NCBI GenBank assembly: GCA_964523975.1
Contig: CAZGBM010000002.1
Span: 1,324-65,323 of the forward strand
Direction of reading: 5' to 3'
Length of the DNA: 64,000 nucleotides
DNA from: an uncultured bacterium
Lineage (GTDB): Bacteria > Hydrothermota > UBA3072
Shown: positions 4,708 through 29,101 of the stretch, piece after piece
Layout: every line of letters starts with the position of its first letter
How positions within the stretch are numbered: position 1 is the stretch's first letter
Program-made: the position numbers and the translations under genes
Notes under the pieces: generated by a model
Database searches by the model: none
Told to the model about the DNA's origin: nothing
The model's input: only the letters and a program-made list of their open reading frames with translations

Positions 4708-7700
4708 TCATCTCCTTATTAGAGGTCTTATTCTCCTATACTTTTCCGTCGCTTCTCGTAACATCACCGAGATATAGGAATTCTTCTTTGCTGGCTCCAT
4801 TTCTGTTTTTGAAAGGAGGCTTAAAGCAAGCTCCGTATTTCCACTATGAAATGCAAGGAGCGCTCTCCTTTCTGCAAAAACATCTTTATTTTCCAATCTT
4901 GAAAGACGCTGATAAGCACCCCAATAATCCTTTGTTTCTTCCTGTATAACACTCAAAAGTATTTGCTCTTTTTCTTTGTCTAATTTCTTGGTTTCCTCAT
5001 AAGCTTTGTCGAACTCTTTTAATTTTAGGTATAAATAAGCTCGTTCCTCCGCAGAATCCGTCATTTTAATTTTATCAAGCAGTACCTGTTTTTTTACTTC
5101 TTCTATTTCTTTAACGCTGACTTTGCTTTTCTTACCGAGAAACCACAGGAGAACCTTTTCTTTACTACCCGGTTCTTTAAGTTTACCCAGATAAAATCCG
5201 GCTTTTTCGAGATTGCCGGAAACAAAGTAAAGATAGGCTCCTTCGGCGACAACGTCTTCTTTATCCGAATTTTTTTCGAGCAATTGTTCATATAAAGGTA
5301 ATTGCTCTTTCGTTTCTATTTTTTTTATATAATTAATTGCCGTATCCCAATCGGAAAGAGCAAGACTGATTCTGACAAGCAAAGGCACCATTTCTACATC
5401 GCCGGGCTCAATAAATTCTTTCAGCTTCTCGGCAACCTCCGGATACTCGTTAAGCAATTCTTCCATTTCGACTTTACTCTTTTGCCTATCTCCTACCTGA
5501 TAACGAATCTTGACAAGTATAATGCGCAGAGGTAAGGGAAGCTTACCGCTGAATAAACTTTCGATTTCCCTCAACAAATATTGTCCTTTTTCCTCGGAAC
5601 CATCGAAGAAGTCTTCTACTATACCAACGAGAGGTGCGTTACGTTCTTCGTTTGCGTATATTTTCAATAATTTTCCGACCAATTCGGTTGACAATTCGAC
5701 TTTAGGAAGTAATCCGTTTATCTCTTTTACTACACTGTCTCTCTTTTCTTCATTCTCCCAATAGGCTTCGATAAAATATTCCAAAGCCTTGTCTACATGA
5801 CCTAAATCTTTCTCGATATCTGCTCTCAAAACAACTATATTTTTTTCGATATTTGGATCTTCAAATTTCTCCAGCGCCTCTACAGCCAAGATTTTTAACT
5901 TTGGGTCAAAACGGATCCCTTTTTCTATCTCTTCAATACCGGAGAGATCTTCCTTATGAAGTTTAACTTTACCGTAAAAAATCCTAAGTGCAGCATGAAT
6001 AGGAGCAATATCGACAAGCTTTTCGCATTCTTCCTGCATAACCTCAACCATAGAAGGCTTTTGCCGAAAAGTCTCGTCCAAACAGGAAACCGCTTTATCA
6101 ATATTACCTGTTTCTCTATATAGTTTATAAAGAGTCATTAGTGTTTCGTATTCTGCACTTCCCTCTTTTTTTATCTCTTCAAGTACTTCGATTGCCTGTT
6201 CCGAAAGAGAATCATCCAGTCCTATCGCCCTTCTTACCAAACCCGCTGCATTTGATAATTTGCCGATTTTTGCATTTGCTCTTGCCAGAGAAAGCATTAA
6301 TTCCGGTTGTTCCTCCAATTCCAAAGATTCTAAAACCTGCGACCCCCATTTAATAGCTTCCTCATAATAATTGTTTTGAATCAAAATTTTAGTAAGTGTT
6401 TTAGAAATAATTTCGTTATCTTTCCTCTTCTTCACTTCACCTATCAAAAAAGAAGTTACTTCGCCTACGTAGTCCGTAAACTCTCTGGCAGCATTTTCTA
6501 TTTCTCTGCAACCCTTTTCGTACTCACCTTTATGGAAATACAAAGCAGAAAGAAGTTTCCGTATTCTCGGTTCATCTCGATACGCCTGCAGATATGTCAA
6601 AATAAATTTAAACCTTTCAGGGTCCTCATCTATAGCTTCTTTATAATATTTTTCCGCTTTATCAAATTCTTCCGCCAACCTGTATAATTCGGCTAAAGCA
6701 AAGGGATATGTAAAAGGCGGGAACTCCTTCCTGTCCAGATTTTTGTAAAATTTAAGAAATTGTTCGGTAAATTCCGGCTTCGATTTTACCCTTTTATCAA
6801 ACTCGGTAAGCATAACAGGTATATAATCGGTTTCCTCTCCAATTATCAAATTGACTTTTTGGGCAATCTCTTCAGGCTTTTCGGGAATCTGAAGCATTAA
6901 AGAAATAATCTCGCCTTCTGTACTTACAGGATTCTCTTTTTTAAATTTTTTGAGTTCTTCTTTTATCTGTTCGGTTTTTTCGGAATCTAAAGACATTTCT
7001 TTGTAAATTTGAAGCGCTGCCTCGGTATCTCCTTCTCTTGAAAGCAATCTTGCCTTTAGTAGTAATCCTGTTGAAGGAAGTTCTTTCCCTTCGAACATCT
7101 GATTTAAATTCTCAAGTATTGTAGTTGATGACGTGGGAGATAGTTCAAAGGCTTTTTCTAAAAGACGAACAACTTCTTCTTTCCATCCAAGGGCGCTATA
7201 AACGCTGGCCATATTAAGAAAATTATCAATCTCTTCCGGAAGCTTTTTTTCAAGTTCTTTAACTTTTTTTCCTATTCCTTCATCTGCAACAAGAGAAACC
7301 GCAGAAAGAAATTCTCTTAGCCCTTCAGAATATCTCTCTTTTTTGATATAAGCTTCAGCTAACTGTTTATGAATTATCGGGTTTCCAGGATCTTTTTTAA
7401 CCATCATCTGATATTTTTTTATTGCATCATCGACCTCAAATTCTTCAATAAGGTTCAGCGCTCTTTCATCTTTTCCTGTTTCTATCAACAACTCGCTCAA
7501 ATAATCAAGAACGTCTTTCGATTCCTTGCTGTAAGGCGATAGAAGAACGATGACTCCATCTTGCAGCTCCGAACTTACCTTCACAGCTTCTCGTAGCTTG
7601 GAAGCTGCTTCAGAATAATGTTTATCCTTAAGCAAAAATTCACCTAAACCTAATTTCAAGTTCGCATCTCCGTAATTTTCTCTTTCTGCTCTTCTTAATT

Positions 7701-21650: not shown

Positions 21651-21679
21651 ATTATAAGAGAATCATATCAGGCTGTCAA
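21651..21679 (-). promoter_or_regulatory. consensus sigma70 promoter (TTGACA-N17-TATAAT) directly upstream of the 116-aa gene
   Basis: On the minus strand the sequence reads TTGACAgcctgatatgattctctTATAAT. The -10 ends about 14 nt before the ATG at 21636. Confidence 0.55.
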
Positions 21680-21809: not shown

Positions 21810-23408
21810 TTATTTTTTCTTATCCTTAAATGCTTTCCCTTTAATATCGGGACGCACATTGGATTTTATGAAAGGCGTCAGCTTATTTACCGCTTTCTCC
21901 AATGCCGTTATTCTGGTACTCAATGACTGAACTTCTCTACTCAACTTTGCACTCTGTGCAGCGAACCCGGATCGAGCCCTCATCAATTGCTCTTCTCGAA
22001 TAGCAGGTATATCGACGTATGAATCGATTTCCTTCTCGAACTCCGATGTGAACATTTTTGCCTCCATCCCGAATTCTTTGAATTCTTTCATTACTTCCTT
22101 ATAGCGATCCTTCAACATTTCTTTGATACCTGACTTTTCAAATTCTTTGAACTCCTTTAGAAGTTTGATAGAGGTACAACAGCTACTCAAGAAGACAGAT
22201 TTCGAAAGGTCGGTTGACGATTCTTGCATCTGCGGGTCGTCTTCGCTTAATGCGAAATCAAAGGCTTCGTATGCAGAAATTTTGCTGTCCAGATTATCAT
22301 CAGGGGAGACGGCAAGCGCTGAACTGTCACCGCGAACACCCGCCATAGCAGAAATCCAGAGTTCTATCCAGGGGTCGAAAAACCAACCGCCTGCCGAAGA
22401 TACTTTTTCCGGAACCGCGGTTTGAATAACCGTCTTATCTGCCGGACTTCCATTAATAACCGGTGGTATAAACGAACCCGAACTGCATTGCTCCATTACA
22501 GCCAGAAGAGTTCTGAATCTTGGTAACGCGGATAGATCGGCTACAAAATCTTCCGCCCAATATTCTCCATCAGGGGTTGACATATAACCTTCGTCCGGCG
22601 TACCGCCCGGTCGGGTACTGTACCAACCATGATTATTCGTAAAGATGTACAAACAATCGTGACTTCCAATCCTCGTAGCAAGTTGACTTATTGCGTTCTG
22701 GAACCCCGTTCTGGTCCCATGTTCATTTACCTGTAGACGAAACGGCGTACCATCTACGGGATAGTCAATTGGATTGGCAAGGTCTTGTGCCGGTTCACAG
22801 AAGGCATCCCAACAGGATATATTCCAGTTGACGTTTCCGTCATGATTACAAACATAGATATCTCCGGGATTAAACCCATAAACATCCAGGAGTGTTCGAT
22901 ATAGAAATTCGAAGTCGTTAACATGTCTACAATTGGAAGAGCCCGAAAACATTATAGCATAACGGTTGCCTTGTAGCTGCCACTTAAAAGGCAGTGGTCC
23001 AAGTAGTTTGTATCCGGTTAGTTTTGCGGGTTCAAGCGGTATTCTATTCATGCGTTTATTCTTATACAGTTTCGCAATTTTCGGAACCCTTAAAGACTCA
23101 AATGTATCGGAAGGGTTTCGATTCAAGAACGGAGGAAATTTTCCGTCTATTTCGGATATAAGCTTTCCCTCTTTAGCGTCATACAATAAATGCTGGCACG
23201 CATGCCCCCAGTTCATACCGGGCTGTTCGTCAATAAAAACATAATGAGCAGGTTTTGCGACAGATATCTTCCTGTCGAAAACGTCTATTTTCGCACCCTT
23301 CTCGAATACTTTACCTTCTATGTACATAGCCGGATCTGCATGCTCACCTCTTTTGCTGAAGTATCGCTTGCTCACGTCTTCTACTATTTTTTTCTTAATG
23401 TTTTCCAT
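21810..23408 (-). CDS. legumain/clostripain-like (clan CD, caspase-fold) cysteine peptidase with N-terminal paralog-domain and C-terminal coiled coil
   Basis: Catalytic-type motifs FTNNHGW (His-Gly) and VMEQCSSGSF (compare legumain EACESGS), plus the block AIMFSGSSNCRHVNDFEFLYRTLLD-YGFNPGDIYVCNHDG (compare legumain AGSxGxxNYRHQAD...). Start placed at MENIKKK, 8 nt downstream of an AGGAG RBS; the ORF track extends to 23444. The C-terminal ~120 aa are K/E-rich coiled coil. Confidence 0.6.
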   Translation of the reverse strand: MENIKKKIVEDVSKRYFSKRGEHADPAMYIEGKVFEKGAKIDVFDRKISVAKPAHYVFIDEQPGMNWGHACQHLLYDAKEGKLISEIDGKFPPFLNRNPSDTFESLRVPKIAKLYKNKRMNRIPLEPAKLTGYKLLGPLPFKWQLQGNRYAIMFSGSSNCRHVNDFEFLYRTLLDVYGFNPGDIYVCNHDGNVNWNISCWDAFCEPAQDLANPIDYPVDGTPFRLQVNEHGTRTGFQNAISQLATRIGSHDCLYIFTNNHGWYSTRPGGTPDEGYMSTPDGEYWAEDFVADLSALPRFRTLLAVMEQCSSGSFIPPVINGSPADKTVIQTAVPEKVSSAGGWFFDPWIELWISAMAGVRGDSSALAVSPDDNLDSKISAYEAFDFALSEDDPQMQESSTDLSKSVFLSSCCTSIKLLKEFKEFEKSGIKEMLKDRYKEVMKEFKEFGMEAKMFTSEFEKEIDSYVDIPAIREEQLMRARSGFAAQSAKLSREVQSLSTRITALEKAVNKLTPFIKSNVRPDIKGKAFKDKKK

Positions 23409-23496
23409 ATAACATCTCCTTTTTATGAAATTAAATATCCCCAAATTCAGCTTTTTACAAATCTCAAATCTTTAAACCGAGTCCTTACGGGTGAGA

Positions 23497-23526
23497 ATAG
23501 TATAATAATTTTACATAATTTGTCAA
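23497..23526 (-). promoter_or_regulatory. putative promoter of the peptidase/ATP-grasp operon (TTGACA-N18-TACTAT)
   Basis: The minus strand reads TTGACAaattatgtaaaattattaTACTAT, about 90 nt upstream of the ATG at 23408. Confidence 0.3.
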
Positions 23527-24494: not shown

Positions 24495-26381
24495 CTAATC
24501 TTCAGCTATTATAGTACAGTTTTTCCCTTCTCCTTTTGCAAAGTAAAGAGCTCTGTCGGCAGCGTCTATGAGATCTGTTTTATTATGCGCGTGTTTAAAC
24601 AACTCAGCTACACCTATTGAAATCGTAACGTTAAACTTAAGCCCATCCGGAGAAATAAACTCTTTTTTTTCTATAGAACTACGCAAATTCTCTGCAATTT
24701 TATAACCCTCCATGGATGTGGTTTTCAGCAGAATAATGGCGAATTCTTCTCCTCCATATCTTGCAAGTATATCAGACGACCTTACGCTGTCTTTCATCAG
24801 CTTGCCAACCTCCCGAAGAATAAGGTCTCCGTTCTGATGACCAAACCGGTCGTTTATCATCTTAAAGTTATCGAAATCTATCATAAGCAAAGTGACAGGT
24901 TCCTCGCCGCGCTCGGCTGCTTTAATTTTATCTTCCAATATCTCCTGAAAAAACCGGTGATTATAAGCTCCGGTTAATCCATCTTTATACCTTGCTTGCT
25001 CATACAAAATAGCTTTTTCTACAGAAGAAGAAGCTATATTAGTAATAATATCGAGCAAATTCAAATCTTTCTCGTTGAAAATTGCTTTATTCTTTGAAAG
25101 AAGTAGTACCCCTCCTTCTACACCTCCCTTGAAAGGTGAAAACATTAGGGATTTAGCACCAAAATCTCTCTCTTCGGGAAACAAAATGGGTCTTTTAATT
25201 TCACCGGTAAGGTCTTCTTTACAAAAAGAAAGATTTTTCTCAAGATAAGTTGCAATGATGCTCTTTCTAAGCCCCTGATAATATCGTCTTCCGTCTTCCT
25301 CTGTGACGTGATACTCGTTGCCTTCTTTAAGCAGAAAAATCGTCCAGACGTCCTTAAAACTCTCTTTTATTGTCTCAAATATTCTTTTTCTGACTTCTTC
25401 CAATTTAATATCTCCTGTTACTCTTTCCGTAAGATTTCGAAGATAACGTAACCTGAAAACCTCAAGCATTGAAAAGTTAATATGATTATAAAGAGAAAAC
25501 AGGGTTGACAAACCTTTGACAACACTTGCTATTATCTCTTTATCTCTCTCTTCAAAAGGTATTTTCTCGATTCTGTCTACAACTAAAATTCCCATAACTT
25601 TATTATTGAACTCAATAGAACTCGCAATAAAACATTTTATATTCTCTTCGTTTTTATAATAACCCAAGTTCGGTGAGGAATTATTGAAATCATTATTAAC
25701 CAAAATACCGGAGTTTTTTACATACCAGGAGAGAGGGCCCTTATTGAGCGAAACCATTTCTTTTATCTCCCCACCGCTTTTTGCTACATGGACCTGAAAT
25801 CTATCAAGTTTATCATCTTTTATCAAAAGAACAACACTAAAGGGATTAAATAATCTGACTATTATATCCAGACTTGCGGATAAAGAGTCATGAAATTTAT
25901 CCGGTATAGCAGCCGGGATATCTTTTTCTCCGGTAATCCCCGTTCTCATTTCTTCTCCCTCGACTTTTATTTTTTTGATTGGATCAATATCTTCTTTCCC
26001 AAGTAATTTAGGCTTTACCCTGTATAAGAAAATTACCGTACCATAAAAAATCAAGTAAGGTATAAATTGTAGTTCGCCAAATAATGAAAATAACGGCAAA
26101 ATTAGCCACCAAAACTTAAGCTTTAATCCTCTCTTATTCAAGATAAAAATAGCAGGAATATATGCAACAGCAAGCGGAGACGACATACCTCCTGCCACCT
26201 GCACGGCAAAAGCTATGCCGGTAAGCGCAAAATAGTAAGATATATCCTCGATTTCTATGATAAAAAAATACAAAACGGCAAGTAGCACAACCGGAATCCA
26301 AACAGGTATTGCTAATGGGAAAGCGACTAGGAGCAGATACCCCAAAAAGAATATAACGGCAGCGCACTTATATAGATTCAT
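24495..26381 (-). CDS. membrane-anchored GAF-domain diguanylate cyclase (GGDEF)
   Basis: N-terminal multi-TM region and central GAF-like domains. The C-terminal GGDEF domain carries RYGGEEF and the downstream DRALYFAKGEG block. Confidence 0.8.
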   Translation of the reverse strand: MNLYKCAAVIFFLGYLLLVAFPLAIPVWIPVVLLAVLYFFIIEIEDISYYFALTGIAFAVQVAGGMSSPLAVAYIPAIFILNKRGLKLKFWWLILPLFSLFGELQFIPYLIFYGTVIFLYRVKPKLLGKEDIDPIKKIKVEGEEMRTGITGEKDIPAAIPDKFHDSLSASLDIIVRLFNPFSVVLLIKDDKLDRFQVHVAKSGGEIKEMVSLNKGPLSWYVKNSGILVNNDFNNSSPNLGYYKNEENIKCFIASSIEFNNKVMGILVVDRIEKIPFEERDKEIIASVVKGLSTLFSLYNHINFSMLEVFRLRYLRNLTERVTGDIKLEEVRKRIFETIKESFKDVWTIFLLKEGNEYHVTEEDGRRYYQGLRKSIIATYLEKNLSFCKEDLTGEIKRPILFPEERDFGAKSLMFSPFKGGVEGGVLLLSKNKAIFNEKDLNLLDIITNIASSSVEKAILYEQARYKDGLTGAYNHRFFQEILEDKIKAAERGEEPVTLLMIDFDNFKMINDRFGHQNGDLILREVGKLMKDSVRSSDILARYGGEEFAIILLKTTSMEGYKIAENLRSSIEKKEFISPDGLKFNVTISIGVAELFKHAHNKTDLIDAADRALYFAKGEGKNCTIIAED

Positions 26382-26512
26382 ATGAAAATAATAATTTTCT
26401 ATCTAAATATTGTCAAGGATAAAGATAAAATTTAGTGTATTTTTTGAAAAATTTTTTTATCTTACCTCTTGACATAATATTAATTTTGACAAATAATAAA
26501 CAGTACATTACT

Positions 26513-27856
26513 ATGAAAACGAGAAAGGAAAGCCAGAACGAATTCGACTGGAAGCAAATAAAGAAGGAACTCCAGAAGGAAATTAACGAATCTGCTTTTA
26601 AAGCTTGGTTTGCAAATATGGATTTGGAAGAGTTAAAGGGTGAGGATGTGTATTTTAACATTCCAAACACGTTTACCCAGCACTGGATAAAAGAACATTT
26701 TATGAATAATTTAACCTCTTCAATAAAAGAAGTTACGGGGAAACTTTATAATGTACATTTTCTTGTAAACAAAAAAACAAATTTGGAAACAAATGAACAA
26801 CAAGAAACAGAAGAGGAACAACAGAAAATACAAAAACCTTTTTTACATGATAAATACACTTTCGAGAACTTTGTTGTGGGCGATAATAGTAAGTTCGCCT
26901 ATGCTGCAGCTATGGCTGTCTCCAACGCGCCGGGCAGAGAATATAACCCTCTCTTTATATACGGGGGAGTCGGATTAGGGAAAACACATCTATTACAAGC
27001 AACTGGAAACAGAGTCTACTCTCAATATCCCAATCTTCGTATACTTTACACTCAAACAGAAGAATTTCTTAATGAAATGATAAAGTCTATTCAGGAATAC
27101 TCGACAGTACAATTTAAACGAAAGTACAGAGAAATAGACCTTCTTTTAATTGATGATATCCATTTTCTCTCGGGTAAAGAAAGATTACAGGAAGAGTTCT
27201 TTCACACATTCAACGCTCTCTTTGAAGCAAAAAAGCAAATAGTTATAACTTCCGACAGGCCCCCCAAGGAGATTTCTGGCCTTGAAGAAAGGGTTATTTC
27301 TCGTTTTCACTGGGGTTTAATGGTAGATCTTCAGCCTCCTGATTACGAAACGCGTTTAGCTATTCTGCGTTCTAAAATACAAAGCGATAATATTCAAATC
27401 AGCGACAGTGTAATTAATTATATAGCCTCCAATATAAAAAACAACATTAGAGAATTAGAAGGGTGTTTAATAAAATTATTGGCGCACGCTTCTATATATA
27501 AAACAGATATTACCGTAGAACTCGCCAAAAAAGTTCTAACTGATTTTATTAAAGAAAAAGAAAAAAGAATAACACTTGAAAAAATCATTAAATCTGTTTC
27601 CGAGTTTTATAATATAGATGCAGATGAAATAAAAGGAGGTAAAAGATCCAAAAGCGTCGCTCAAGCTCGTCAGATTGCCATTTACCTTTCAAGACACTTA
27701 ACAAATCTTTCATTAAAAGAAATCGGTAACGGCTTTGGGAAAAGAGACCATTCTACAATTCTACATTCTTTCAACAAAATCGAAAATTTAATGCGGAAAA
27801 ACAATAGGATAAAAGGGGATATTTCAACCATAAAAAGTAAATTGACGGAAACTTAA
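26513..27856 (+). CDS. dnaA: chromosomal replication initiator protein DnaA
   Basis: AAA+ Walker A motif GGVGLGKTHL and domain IV (KRSKSVAQARQIAIYLSRHLT...STILHS). Start taken at MKTRK at 26513; the ORF track's upstream extension is hydrophobic junk. Confidence 0.9.
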   Translation: MKTRKESQNEFDWKQIKKELQKEINESAFKAWFANMDLEELKGEDVYFNIPNTFTQHWIKEHFMNNLTSSIKEVTGKLYNVHFLVNKKTNLETNEQQETEEEQQKIQKPFLHDKYTFENFVVGDNSKFAYAAAMAVSNAPGREYNPLFIYGGVGLGKTHLLQATGNRVYSQYPNLRILYTQTEEFLNEMIKSIQEYSTVQFKRKYREIDLLLIDDIHFLSGKERLQEEFFHTFNALFEAKKQIVITSDRPPKEISGLEERVISRFHWGLMVDLQPPDYETRLAILRSKIQSDNIQISDSVINYIASNIKNNIRELEGCLIKLLAHASIYKTDITVELAKKVLTDFIKEKEKRITLEKIIKSVSEFYNIDADEIKGGKRSKSVAQARQIAIYLSRHLTNLSLKEIGNGFGKRDHSTILHSFNKIENLMRKNNRIKGDISTIKSKLTET

Positions 27857-28021: not shown

Positions 28022-29101
28022 ATGTTGTTTTCAGTAAATGCCGAAGATTTTATTAAAGAGTTTAAATCTGTAATTCAAATTGTACCTATCCACACAACTT
28101 TTCCTATACTATCTAATGTGCGGATAAAAATAGAAAAAGAAAAAATAAATATTTTTGCAACTGACCTTGATACTTCTTTGATGTATATTATGGATTTATG
28201 TAAAACAGAAAAAATAGGTGTTATTGTGGTTCCTGCGAAAACCCTATTCTCAATAATGGGAGAAATAAAGGGCGAAACGATTTTCCACAGGGAAGAAAAC
28301 AGAGTAAAGATTGAATATAAAAAAGGCTATTTTTACCTACCTTTAATGGAAGAGGAAGATTTTCCTTCCGAGCCCGTAATAACGGAAGACGAGACCTATG
28401 AGTTAAATACGGAAGAGATCAACGAAATTATAGATAAACTTGTTTTTATTGTTCCCGAGGATTCGGCTAAAAGAAAAATGAGTGGAATGCTATGGGATTA
28501 CGAAGATAAAAATCTGCGTCTTGTAGCAACAGATAGTTTTAGTCTTGGTTACAAAGACATTAAGGTCAATCTTGGAAATAAACCTTTTAAAGTGGTGGTT
28601 CCTCCAAAGATTCTAAGACAGTTAGCTACTTTTAACGTCAAGAAAATGAAAATCGGTGTTGATGAAAGCAGAATTTATTTCTTAGGAGATAAATTTACAT
28701 TAGTCTCAAATTTGATAAAAGTCGATTTCCCAAATTATAAGGCTGTAATATCGGAACAAAACGATAACTTTCTTACCCTGGACAGAGAATCTTTTCTTTC
28801 CTCTCTTAGACGGGTCTCTGTTTTTTCGAATGATAGACCCAAAACTATAAATTTGGATTTAGGAGATAACTTAAACATTGAAGTTTTCTCGGAAATAGGA
28901 GAAAGTAAGGAAGAGTTGGAGGGAGAGTATAAAGGTAAAAAAATAAATATAGCTCTTTCTTCCAATTATTTAATTGATTTTTTAAGAAAGATCAAATCTC
29001 CTAAAGTAATTTTAAGTTTTGAAGCCGAAAATAAACCTATTACAATAGAAGGAGAGAAAAAAGAAATATTTTATCTTTTAATGCCTATAACAATAGAATA
29101 A
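28022..29101 (+). CDS. dnaN: DNA polymerase III beta subunit (sliding clamp)
   Basis: 359 aa with three-domain clamp architecture. Lies immediately downstream of dnaA. Confidence 0.88.
   Translation: MLFSVNAEDFIKEFKSVIQIVPIHTTFPILSNVRIKIEKEKINIFATDLDTSLMYIMDLCKTEKIGVIVVPAKTLFSIMGEIKGETIFHREENRVKIEYKKGYFYLPLMEEEDFPSEPVITEDETYELNTEEINEIIDKLVFIVPEDSAKRKMSGMLWDYEDKNLRLVATDSFSLGYKDIKVNLGNKPFKVVVPPKILRQLATFNVKKMKIGVDESRIYFLGDKFTLVSNLIKVDFPNYKAVISEQNDNFLTLDRESFLSSLRRVSVFSNDRPKTINLDLGDNLNIEVFSEIGESKEELEGEYKGKKINIALSSNYLIDFLRKIKSPKVILSFEAENKPITIEGEKKEIFYLLMPITIE

Follow-up and report, generated by a model that had tools for sequence, protein, structure and literature searches.

A bacterial legumain-like peptidase with a lysine- and glutamate-rich tail as candidate substrate of a neighbouring ATP-grasp pair

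Results

The Operon and the Peptidase Gene

The subject of this work is a group of four consecutive minus-strand genes in a stretch of 64,000 nucleotides (nt) from an uncultured bacterium (GTDB lineage Bacteria; Hydrothermota; UBA3072; GenBank assembly GCA_964523975.1, contig CAZGBM010000002.1, positions 1,324 to 65,323), here called the window. The genes encode, in order, a peptidase, a free copy of the N-terminal domain of this peptidase (116 amino acids, aa) and two ATP-grasp proteins, GraspA (303 aa) and GraspB (320 aa). The analysis makes it rather probable that the peptidase is a three-part cytoplasmic protein, in which a legumain-like catalytic domain is preceded by a possibly regulatory N-terminal domain and followed by a tail rich in Lys and Glu (K/E-rich), and in which the tail would be a substrate of GraspA and GraspB. 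All coordinates in the window are collected in Table 1.

The open reading frame (ORF) of the peptidase, listed as 21810..23444 on the minus strand, encodes 544 aa when read from a TTG and 532 aa when read from the ATG at 23408. The shorter form is supported both by an AGGAG 8 nt 5' of this ATG and by the alignment of homologues, which opens at the same Met. An earlier note on this DNA had assigned a 532-aa product to 21810-23408 and had quoted three motif strings from it, and all three are indeed there: AIMFSGSSNCRHVNDFEFLYRTLLDVYGFNPGDIYVC at residues 151-187, FTNNHGW at residues 256-262 and VMEQCSSGSF at residues 304-313. The N-terminus of the peptidase, MENIKKKIVEDVSKRYF, contains no hydrophobic signal segment, and the protein is therefore predicted to be cytoplasmic rather than lysosomal or vacuolar.

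The Catalytic Domain

When the peptidase sequence is used alone, it scores 19.9 bits against the Pfam model Peptidase_C13 (PF01650), where the cut-off is 22.8 (E 5.9e-4), and its best sequence match in the PDB has an E value of 0.079. Fifty full-length homologues were found, of which 18 carry a precomputed PF01650 match and one bears the NCBI name 'C13 family peptidase'. When a profile of 30 homologues is compared with the PDB sequences, there are 12 matches, all of them to legumains or asparaginyl endopeptidases, with AtVPE-gamma as the best (E 3.2e-8). The profile alignment pairs N159-x-R161-H162 with N-Y-R-H of legumain, N-H260-G with the catalytic His-Gly, E306-x-C308-x-S-G with E-A-C-E-S-G, and S337-S338 with the E-S-S segment. 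In this alignment N159, H260-G261 and C308 correspond to legumain N42, H148-G and C189, while the invariant R161, H162 and S338 correspond to Arg44, His45 and Ser216. Among 75 members of the family, which come from some archaea and from bacteria of many phyla, R161, H162, H260, G261, E306, C308, S338 and D345 are identical throughout, and N159 is kept in 69 and is Asp in the other six. The pair D390-x-P392, just after the catalytic core, is likewise identical in all 75 members and in both clades of the family; it may serve as an Asp P1 or site of auto-processing, or else as a turn in the structure.

The predicted structure has the caspase-haemoglobinase fold, and legumain is its nearest structural neighbour. 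Structures of pro-legumain are matched through the catalytic domain only, with TM-scores (normalised to the target) of 0.41-0.47 against 0.66 for the mature form, and several plant asparaginyl ligases are among the top structural matches. Neither clostripain nor another enzyme of family C11 is the closest relative in fold or sequence. Hence, of the 'legumain/clostripain-like' assignment in the earlier note, the legumain part stands on profile and fold, and clostripain as nearest relative has to be given up. The clan CD arrangement that the same note proposed, with His-Gly followed by Cys in the legumain order, is borne out by profile, fold and alignments, and so is its comparison of N-x-R-H with legumain, where the counterparts are Asn42, Arg44 and His45; hidden Markov model (HMM) and structural comparisons lead to legumains and place the region in no non-peptidase fold. 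Its emphasis on the Gln of a Gln-Cys-Ser-Ser-Gly motif was misplaced, since Gln307 varies (Q or P) and the conserved residue is instead Glu306, the counterpart of legumain Glu187.

The Asn-specific S1 pocket of legumain is formed by Arg44, His45, Ser216 and Asp231, according to a review of clan CD structures (PMC4357240). Three of these residues have the invariant counterparts already named. The fourth counterpart is presumably D345, which stands in the sequence F-D-P-W where legumain has G-D-W-Y; this pairing was made by manual alignment to a human legumain sequence, the residue numbering of which reproduced every published position.

Profile, fold and residue conservation together establish, at the level of sequence, a divergent C13-like clan CD cysteine peptidase domain with an intact set Asn159/His260/Cys308. 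Because the catalytic set is intact and the S1-pocket counterparts Arg161, His162, Ser338 and, presumably, Asp345 are present together with Glu306, the peptidase should act on peptide bonds that follow Asn, and perhaps on those that follow Asp, by cleavage or by transfer. The Asn specificity that the earlier note had considered thus gains support from the invariance of the S1-pocket residues.

The ATP-Grasp Pair

The best PDB sequence matches of GraspB are the graspetide synthetases PsnB, CdnC, MdnC and MdnB, which come ahead of RimK with E values of 1e-13 against 1e-6 to 1e-4. Among the NCBIfam models, GraspB matches the RiPP maturase model TIGR04187 with E 4.7e-40, although its 137.7 bits are far below the cut-off of 350, and it matches the further RiPP maturase models MvdD with 1e-26 and MvdC with 1e-24, as well as rimK_fam with 5.8e-13. 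Its sole above-threshold match in Pfam is the RimK domain. These scores argue for homology between GraspB and the graspetide synthetases, with no curated model assigning the subfamily. The known systems with homologous ligases are those of microviridin (MdnB/MdnC), plesiocin (PsnB), chryseoviridin (CdnC) and corallotide (CorB).

GraspA is a full-length paralogue of GraspB, with only faint matches of its own in Pfam and NCBIfam. Since it has lost both the Lys segment that binds ATP and the E-x-N that binds Mg, where LEVN has become LNSM, it is almost certainly catalytically inactive.

The C-Terminal Tail

The family divides with respect to these ligase genes. The near clade comprises 16 loci with at least 42% identity, all with GraspA and GraspB directly downstream of the peptidase gene, and at the C-terminus all its peptidases carry K-E-x and E-P-K repeats, after which come a helix and then L-x-P-F-I-x4-R-P-D/E-x-K. 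The distant clade comprises 67 loci that have neither ligase genes nor tail. The tail is therefore found in 16/16 family loci with the downstream ATP-grasp pair and in 0/67 loci without the pair, counts that take no account of shared ancestry. In the window protein the repeats, made of KEF/KEx units, are the candidate core for side-chain ligation, and they are followed by the helix SLSTRITALEKAVNKL and by T-P512-F-I-x4-R519-P-D, which together are a candidate docking motif for the ATP-grasp pair.

In the K/E-repeat stretches of the C13-clade homologues the content of Lys is 25%, that of Glu 22% and that of Pro 7%. Acidic residues are found at positions -5, -2, +1, +4 and +7 from Lys, which corresponds to a period of 3, with one Lys and one acid in each unit. 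The extreme C-termini of the tails are variable and basic. AlphaFold predicts the C-terminal 120 aa with low confidence, apart from a helix at residues 472-509. The description of the C-terminal 120 or so residues as K/E-rich in the earlier note was thus correct.

The further suggestion of the same note, a coiled coil for oligomerisation or anchoring, fares differently. If the tail were such a coiled coil, the ATP-grasp genes, which that note leaves unmentioned, would be functionally unrelated neighbours; the long helix in the AlphaFold model and some faint coiled-coil matches in Pfam agree with this. However, a period of 3 and common Pro are ill suited to heptads and disfavour a heptad coiled coil, and the strict pairing of tail and ATP-grasp genes, which extends across phyla and, as described below, to unrelated host enzymes, is not expected of neighbours that have nothing to do with each other. 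This alternative is accordingly considered very improbable.

Another alternative keeps the tail as a substrate but changes the reaction: the ATP-grasp pair could add amino acids to the C-terminus of the tail or to its side chains, for example as poly-Glu, in the way that RimK acts on ribosomal protein S6. That the only above-threshold Pfam match of GraspB is RimK, and that RimK is among its PDB matches, speaks for such an addition. Yet the graspetide synthetases outscore RimK in both comparisons given above, the variable and basic C-termini offer no conserved acceptor, and a repeat unit with one Lys and one acid fits pairing of side chains. Addition of amino acids is unlikely on this evidence.

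The Same Tail on Other Proteins

At E <=1e-10 there are 3676 homologues of GraspB, which will include other graspetide ligases. Gene contexts were taken from individual GraspB homologues and from 80 metagenome loci. The order is almost without exception a gene for a protein that ends in L-x2-L-E-x5-L-x-H-F-I-x4-R-P-D-L-x2-G-A-L, then a GraspA-like gene and then a GraspB-like gene. Where there is enough upstream DNA, a GraspA-like gene is present in 58 of 62 loci, and a protein with the tail motif is encoded in 49 of 53 loci of related ATP-grasp genes. Of the four loci counted as lacking it, at least two have variants of the motif to which the search pattern was blind.

The proteins that bear this tail are of several kinds. 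About 30 are stand-alone K/E-rich tail proteins of about 140-400 aa, encoded upstream of the ATP-grasp pair. Seven are S8 subtilases (Pfam E 1e-15 to 2e-6, all above threshold), six are trypsin/NAL1-like serine proteases (below the Pfam threshold but with the GDSG motif present) and one is an M6 metallopeptidase (Pfam E 1e-25). In locus L098 (3940-5253) the bearer is a tyrosinase (PF00264, E 2.5e-38), which has a K/E-repeat tail with the end HFI....RPDL and is encoded 5' of the ATP-grasp pair; from this follows that the tail is not restricted to proteases. Since K/E repeats cross-match, the classing of these proteins by BLAST was made with repeat-trimmed sequences.

That these tails correspond to the tail of the peptidase is supported by three comparisons. 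Residues 494-521 of the window protein match a stand-alone K/E protein (BLASTP E 9e-7). Positions 400-508 of the HMM of the peptidase family match the tails of other proteins. Finally, the tail-end profiles of the peptidase set and of the set of other proteins align with an hhalign probability of 98.3% (E 2.4e-14); the motif itself had served to anchor both sets, but the similarity runs on through the preceding helix.

The composition of the repeats differs between the two kinds of bearer. In the repeats attached to the C13-like peptidase only 2 of 2353 residues are Asn, with 43 of the 45 sequences free of it, while homologous repeats on other proteins contain 111 Asn in 4842 residues (Fisher p 5e-17, for counts that ignore shared ancestry). 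The frequency of Asp in the peptidase-attached repeats is also three-fold lower than in the others. This depletion of Asn and Asp in the attached tail is a hint that the peptidase itself is specific for Asn or Asp.

The tail thus has the two properties that would be expected of a ligase substrate: repeated donor and acceptor side chains, and a recognition segment that co-varies with the ligase. Because homologous tails on unrelated proteins adjoin the same ligase pair, the tail is most likely a substrate of that pair, and the predicted products are probably Lys-Glu cross-links.

Consider instead an ordinary cluster for a peptide that is ribosomally synthesised and then modified post-translationally (RiPP), in which the peptidase would remove the leader from a separate short graspetide precursor and its tail would be incidental. 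GraspB does belong with the graspetide synthetases, and proteases are common in RiPP clusters. Carter et al. 2026 (PMC13097080) describe, among the RODEO graspetides, a group 32 made up of 46 clusters whose proteases are of diverse kinds (M6 in 22% of the clusters) and for which small precursors are predicted, albeit poorly conserved ones. A cluster of this type should contain a precursor gene, but none of 17 such operons has a conserved small ORF (25-95 aa) inside or next to it: the conserved candidates are antisense or out-of-frame shadows of coding genes, and the operon genes are so tightly spaced or overlapping that no room is left for a separate short gene. The same absence is reported by Makarova et al. 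2022 (PMC8939145), whose ATP-grasp branches 7 and 8 lie beside peptidases of several unrelated families with no detectable precursor, and whose branch 8 includes a truncated inactive second ATP-grasp. An incidental tail is, moreover, at odds with the co-occurrence counts, and also with the presence of the tail alone, or on a tyrosinase, beside the same pair in operons that lack a protease. The ordinary RiPP cluster is for these reasons held to be improbable. The descriptions of branch 8 and of group 32 both fit the present locus, which is thus a candidate member of either, and the available text of the two papers does not mention a C-terminal tail shared by the peptidases.

Some stand-alone K/E-tail and ATP-grasp operons lie directly downstream of T2SSE/T2SSF genes of type II secretion or type IV pili (L084 1-4252, L085 and L091 897-2126). 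The P0303 locus has no T2SS genes, and a PilS-like kinase gene and N_methyl pilin genes are found downstream there. The proximity to these genes may be a functional link or lineage-specific synteny. In locus L087, from a WOR-3 bin and the closest relative of the operon, GraspB is followed by an additional gene of 120 aa (6298-6660) with no Pfam match; the window has no equivalent of this gene, and there GraspB is followed by a flavoprotein gene.

The N-Terminal Domain and Its Free Paralogue

The free paralogue of the N-terminal domain (N-domain), to which the earlier note had referred, is real (Table 1), and its structure model has a pLDDT of 83. No cystatin- or PepSY-type match was obtained for residues 1-110 or for the free paralogue in Pfam and NCBIfam at E up to 1, and no model in the two collections matches either of them. 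In a comparison of folds, the matches of the N-domain are a cystatin-fold design, PepSY domains and protease pro-peptides, which suggests a likeness at the fold level only. Weak phmmer matches to chlorite dismutase (E 0.13-0.16) have no backing from the fold search and were treated as chance.

When the free paralogue is used in a word-indexed homologue search, only the protein itself is returned, whereas an exhaustive search of 1.84 billion representative proteins returns 159 cluster representatives. About half of these N-domain relatives are stand-alone proteins of 100-200 aa. Of the 67 longer ones, 55 have a C13-like domain after the N-domain, whereas the other 12 are fragments, have N-domains in tandem or are likely to be spurious. 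Three proteins (P0133, P0141 and P0150) have two tandem N-domains and no C13-like domain, which makes a third architecture. In 83 family loci the free N-domain gene is the only widely conserved neighbour; it is present in about 55 of them, on the same strand and directly before or after the fused gene. Since the N-domain is found almost only fused to or beside this peptidase family, it is tied specifically to it.

In 138 copies of the N-domain, W67, H69 and P92 are present in all and D60, P63 and N66 in 136 each; P92 belongs to an FPP motif at residues 91-93, and the others are part of a hairpin loop that also includes C71. The latter residue is kept in 78 of 79 fused copies, as against 39 of 59 free ones.

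It is known that an exposed Asn mediates the binding of cystatins E/M, C and F to legumain. Cystatins and PepSY/FTP pro-peptides are small protease regulators with a helix on a sheet, the N-domain is probably in the same general fold class, and like the cystatins it has an invariant Asn in a hairpin loop. We therefore propose, tentatively, that the N-domain regulates the peptidase by presenting Asn66 to the active site. The proposal is based on the pocket being predicted to bind Asn, on the fact that beyond the catalytic domain a single Asn is invariant and sits in an exposed loop of the partner domain, and on a probable fold class that holds known protease inhibitors and pro-domains. The fused N-domain would then be a pro-domain in cis and the free copy an inhibitor or first substrate in trans, and in both the Asn66 loop would be offered to the S1 pocket, as cystatins offer their Asn to legumain. 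Asp390 of the invariant D-x-P is an alternative P1 candidate.

The loop Asn may also be seen as the site of a different reaction. By analogy with butelase and GPI transamidase, the peptidase could be mainly a transpeptidase or ligase that cuts the free or fused N-domain at Asn66 and joins the C-terminus so formed to an amine, possibly a Lys of the tail, so that a branched or cyclised protein is formed. Enzymes of the legumain family do carry out transpeptidation, which in the plant asparaginyl ligases is favoured near neutral pH, as in the cytoplasm; that such ligases are among the top structural matches, that Asn66 is so widely kept and that the tail is rich in Lys all agree with a role of this kind. 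But the 67 loci of the distant clade keep the N-domain pair and have no Lys-rich tail, and transpeptidation of this kind therefore cannot depend on the tail. This role of the enzyme is regarded as very improbable.

Regulatory Sequences and Genomic Surroundings

Promoter-like sites precede both the peptidase gene and the gene of the free N-domain. The gap 3' of the peptidase gene is 173 nt long and houses an 18-bp inverted repeat, which was not called a terminator, as the coding strand is without a U-tract. The repeat and the sigma-70 site that follows it could be an operator or RNA element together with an internal promoter that serves the gene of the paralogue and those of the ATP-grasp pair. 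When the four proteins are compared with the PADLOC defence models there is no meaningful match, and a known anti-phage system is thus unsupported.

The neighbours of the operon are genes for RNase E/G, for a lipoamide-dehydrogenase-like flavoprotein and for pyrimidine synthesis, as well as dnaA and dnaN. The nearest relatives of the operon proteins are found in a genome bin of candidate division WOR-3 and in Bacteroidales bins. The genes dnaA (26435-27856, plus strand) and dnaN (28022-29101, plus strand) are located at the minimum of the cumulative GC skew, at about 26-28 kb, and the operon thus probably lies some 3 kb away from the origin of chromosomal replication. Between a YjbQ-like gene and dnaA, at 24495-26381, lies the gene of a protein of 628 aa, which is hydrophobic in its N-terminal half and ends in a GGDEF diguanylate cyclase domain (E 9e-46).

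Table 1. Positions of the genes, domains, key codons and putative regulatory sites of the operon in the window
Feature	Position	Strand	Basis or remark
Promoter-like site TTGACA-16-TATACT, 5' of peptidase gene	23499..23526	-	consensus match only, 11/12 positions
N-terminal domain, residues 1-110	23079..23408	-	one helix packed on antiparallel sheet; high-confidence predicted fold
Hairpin loop D60-x2-P63-x2-N66-W67-x-H69-x-C71	23196-23231	-	conserved; between strands 4 and 5
Linker, residues 111-145	22974..23078	-	low-confidence prediction; missing in part from distant members of the family
Legumain-like (C13-like, clan CD) catalytic domain, residues 146-412	22173..22973	-	profile matches, fold, residue conservation
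N159/R161/H162 codons	22923-22934	-	key residues of catalytic domain
H260-G261 codons	22626-22631	-	catalytic His-Gly
E306/C308 codons	22485-22493	-	catalytic Cys and conserved Glu
S338 codon	22395-22397	-	S1-pocket counterpart
D345 codon	within 22368-22382	-	candidate S1-pocket counterpart
D390-x-P392 codons	22233-22241	-	invariant
K/E-rich repeat region, residues 413-494	21927..22172	-	repeat periodicity
Conserved tail end, residues 495-524	21837..21926	-	conservation
Perfect 18-bp inverted repeat, 8-nt loop	21713..21756	.	between peptidase and free N-domain genes; once only in window
Sigma-70 consensus TTGACA-17-TATAAT, ahead of free N-domain gene	21651..21679	-	consensus match only, 12/12
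Free N-domain paralogue, 116 aa	21286..21636	-	40% identity over 108 aa to residues 1-108, E 8e-30
GraspA, full-length ATP-grasp paralogue, 303 aa	20323..21234	-	hhalign against GraspB 97.9%, E 3.7e-13
GraspB, graspetide-synthetase-like ATP-grasp ligase, 320 aa	19404..20366	-	overlaps GraspA by 44 nt

Discussion

The mechanism that is proposed for the tail can be described as follows. The tail would be a mobile substrate module with a docking site for GraspA and GraspB. These two proteins would dock on the terminal amphipathic helix and on the PFI-x4-RPD motif, and Lys and Glu side chains of the repeats would be joined in an ATP-driven reaction to isopeptide (macrolactam) links. In this way graspetide chemistry would act on a full-size enzyme's tail instead of on a short precursor peptide. 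In its widest form, the reading is that one dead and one active ATP-grasp protein cross-link a portable C-terminal K/E module with the signature [P/H]FI-x4-RPDL, which is carried by at least five unrelated enzyme families (C13-like, S8, trypsin-like, M6 and tyrosinase) and by stand-alone proteins, and which is here attached to a new cytoplasmic lineage of legumains with its own Asn-loop pro-domain and inhibitor pair. To this wider reading, with all its parts, we give a little less than an even chance.

Several observations weigh against the proposed explanation of the peptidase and its tail. The single sequence of the peptidase does not reach the cut-off of the C13 model, GraspB falls far short of that of TIGR04187, and the RimK match leaves some room for the addition of amino acids in place of cross-linking. 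The repeats of the window protein are more degenerate than those of most homologues, and the co-occurrence counts take no account of the shared ancestry of the loci. The two surveys also read their loci differently: Makarova et al. propose that peptides are supplied by the peptidases through cleavage of other proteins of the cell (PMC8939145), and over both papers the proteases are taken as peptide suppliers, maturation enzymes or resistance genes (PMC8939145, PMC13097080).

It is instructive to compare the proposed system with the known graspetides. Like their precursors, the candidate substrate has repeated units of Lys and acid, and the example closest at hand is corallotide, the 22-kDa precursor of which obtains five KxxxD Lys-Asp isopeptide rings from an enzyme of the TIGR04187 type (PMC13097080). 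The P/H-F-I core of the recognition segment is, furthermore, reminiscent of the PFFARFL leader motif. The differences are equally clear. Graspetide precursors are short, while here a 532-aa enzyme carries the candidate substrate as its C-terminal module, and elsewhere the candidate is a whole K/E-rich protein of 160-350 aa; the recognition segment is C-terminal to the repeats, where graspetides have an N-terminal leader; and the ligase always has a dead paralogue as its partner, with no genes for export or for a leader peptidase.

A similar comparison can be made with legumain, also named asparaginyl endopeptidase or vacuolar processing enzyme, VPE (MEROPS family C13). The identity to the window peptidase is only about 15-18%. 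Legumain has a secretory signal and is lysosomal or vacuolar, whereas the window peptidase has no signal peptide. Legumain also has a C-terminal activation peptide and an LSAM/death-domain-like pro-domain, both of which are missing from the window protein, and in their place this protein has the family-specific N-domain, with the free paralogue, and the K/E-repeat tail. In the open-access literature we found no work on bacterial legumains, only on eukaryotic ones, and none on protease-fused graspetide substrates, for which a prior description outside open access is possible.

What the cross-linked tail would do for its bearers is a matter of speculation. Because the bearers span serine, cysteine, metallo and copper chemistry, a generic role as a stabilising, tethering, scaffold or assembly element is more likely than that of a mechanism-specific inhibitor.

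The system as a whole combines known kinds of component, legumain peptidases and graspetide-type modification by ATP-grasp ligases. The legumains of eukaryotes have been studied in depth as Asn-specific proteases and peptide ligases of the lysosome or vacuole, but their bacterial relatives are essentially uncharacterised. The present family would offer a neutral-pH legumain of the cytoplasm with a dedicated partner domain, which could be a natural pair of protease and inhibitor or a new Asn-directed ligase tool. If the proposal for the tail is true, then the shared C-terminal tails are the 'missing precursors' of the protease-linked ATP-grasp branches, side-chain stapling of the RiPP type reaches from peptides to whole enzymes, and it does so by way of a recognisable docking motif that would be transplantable for protein engineering.

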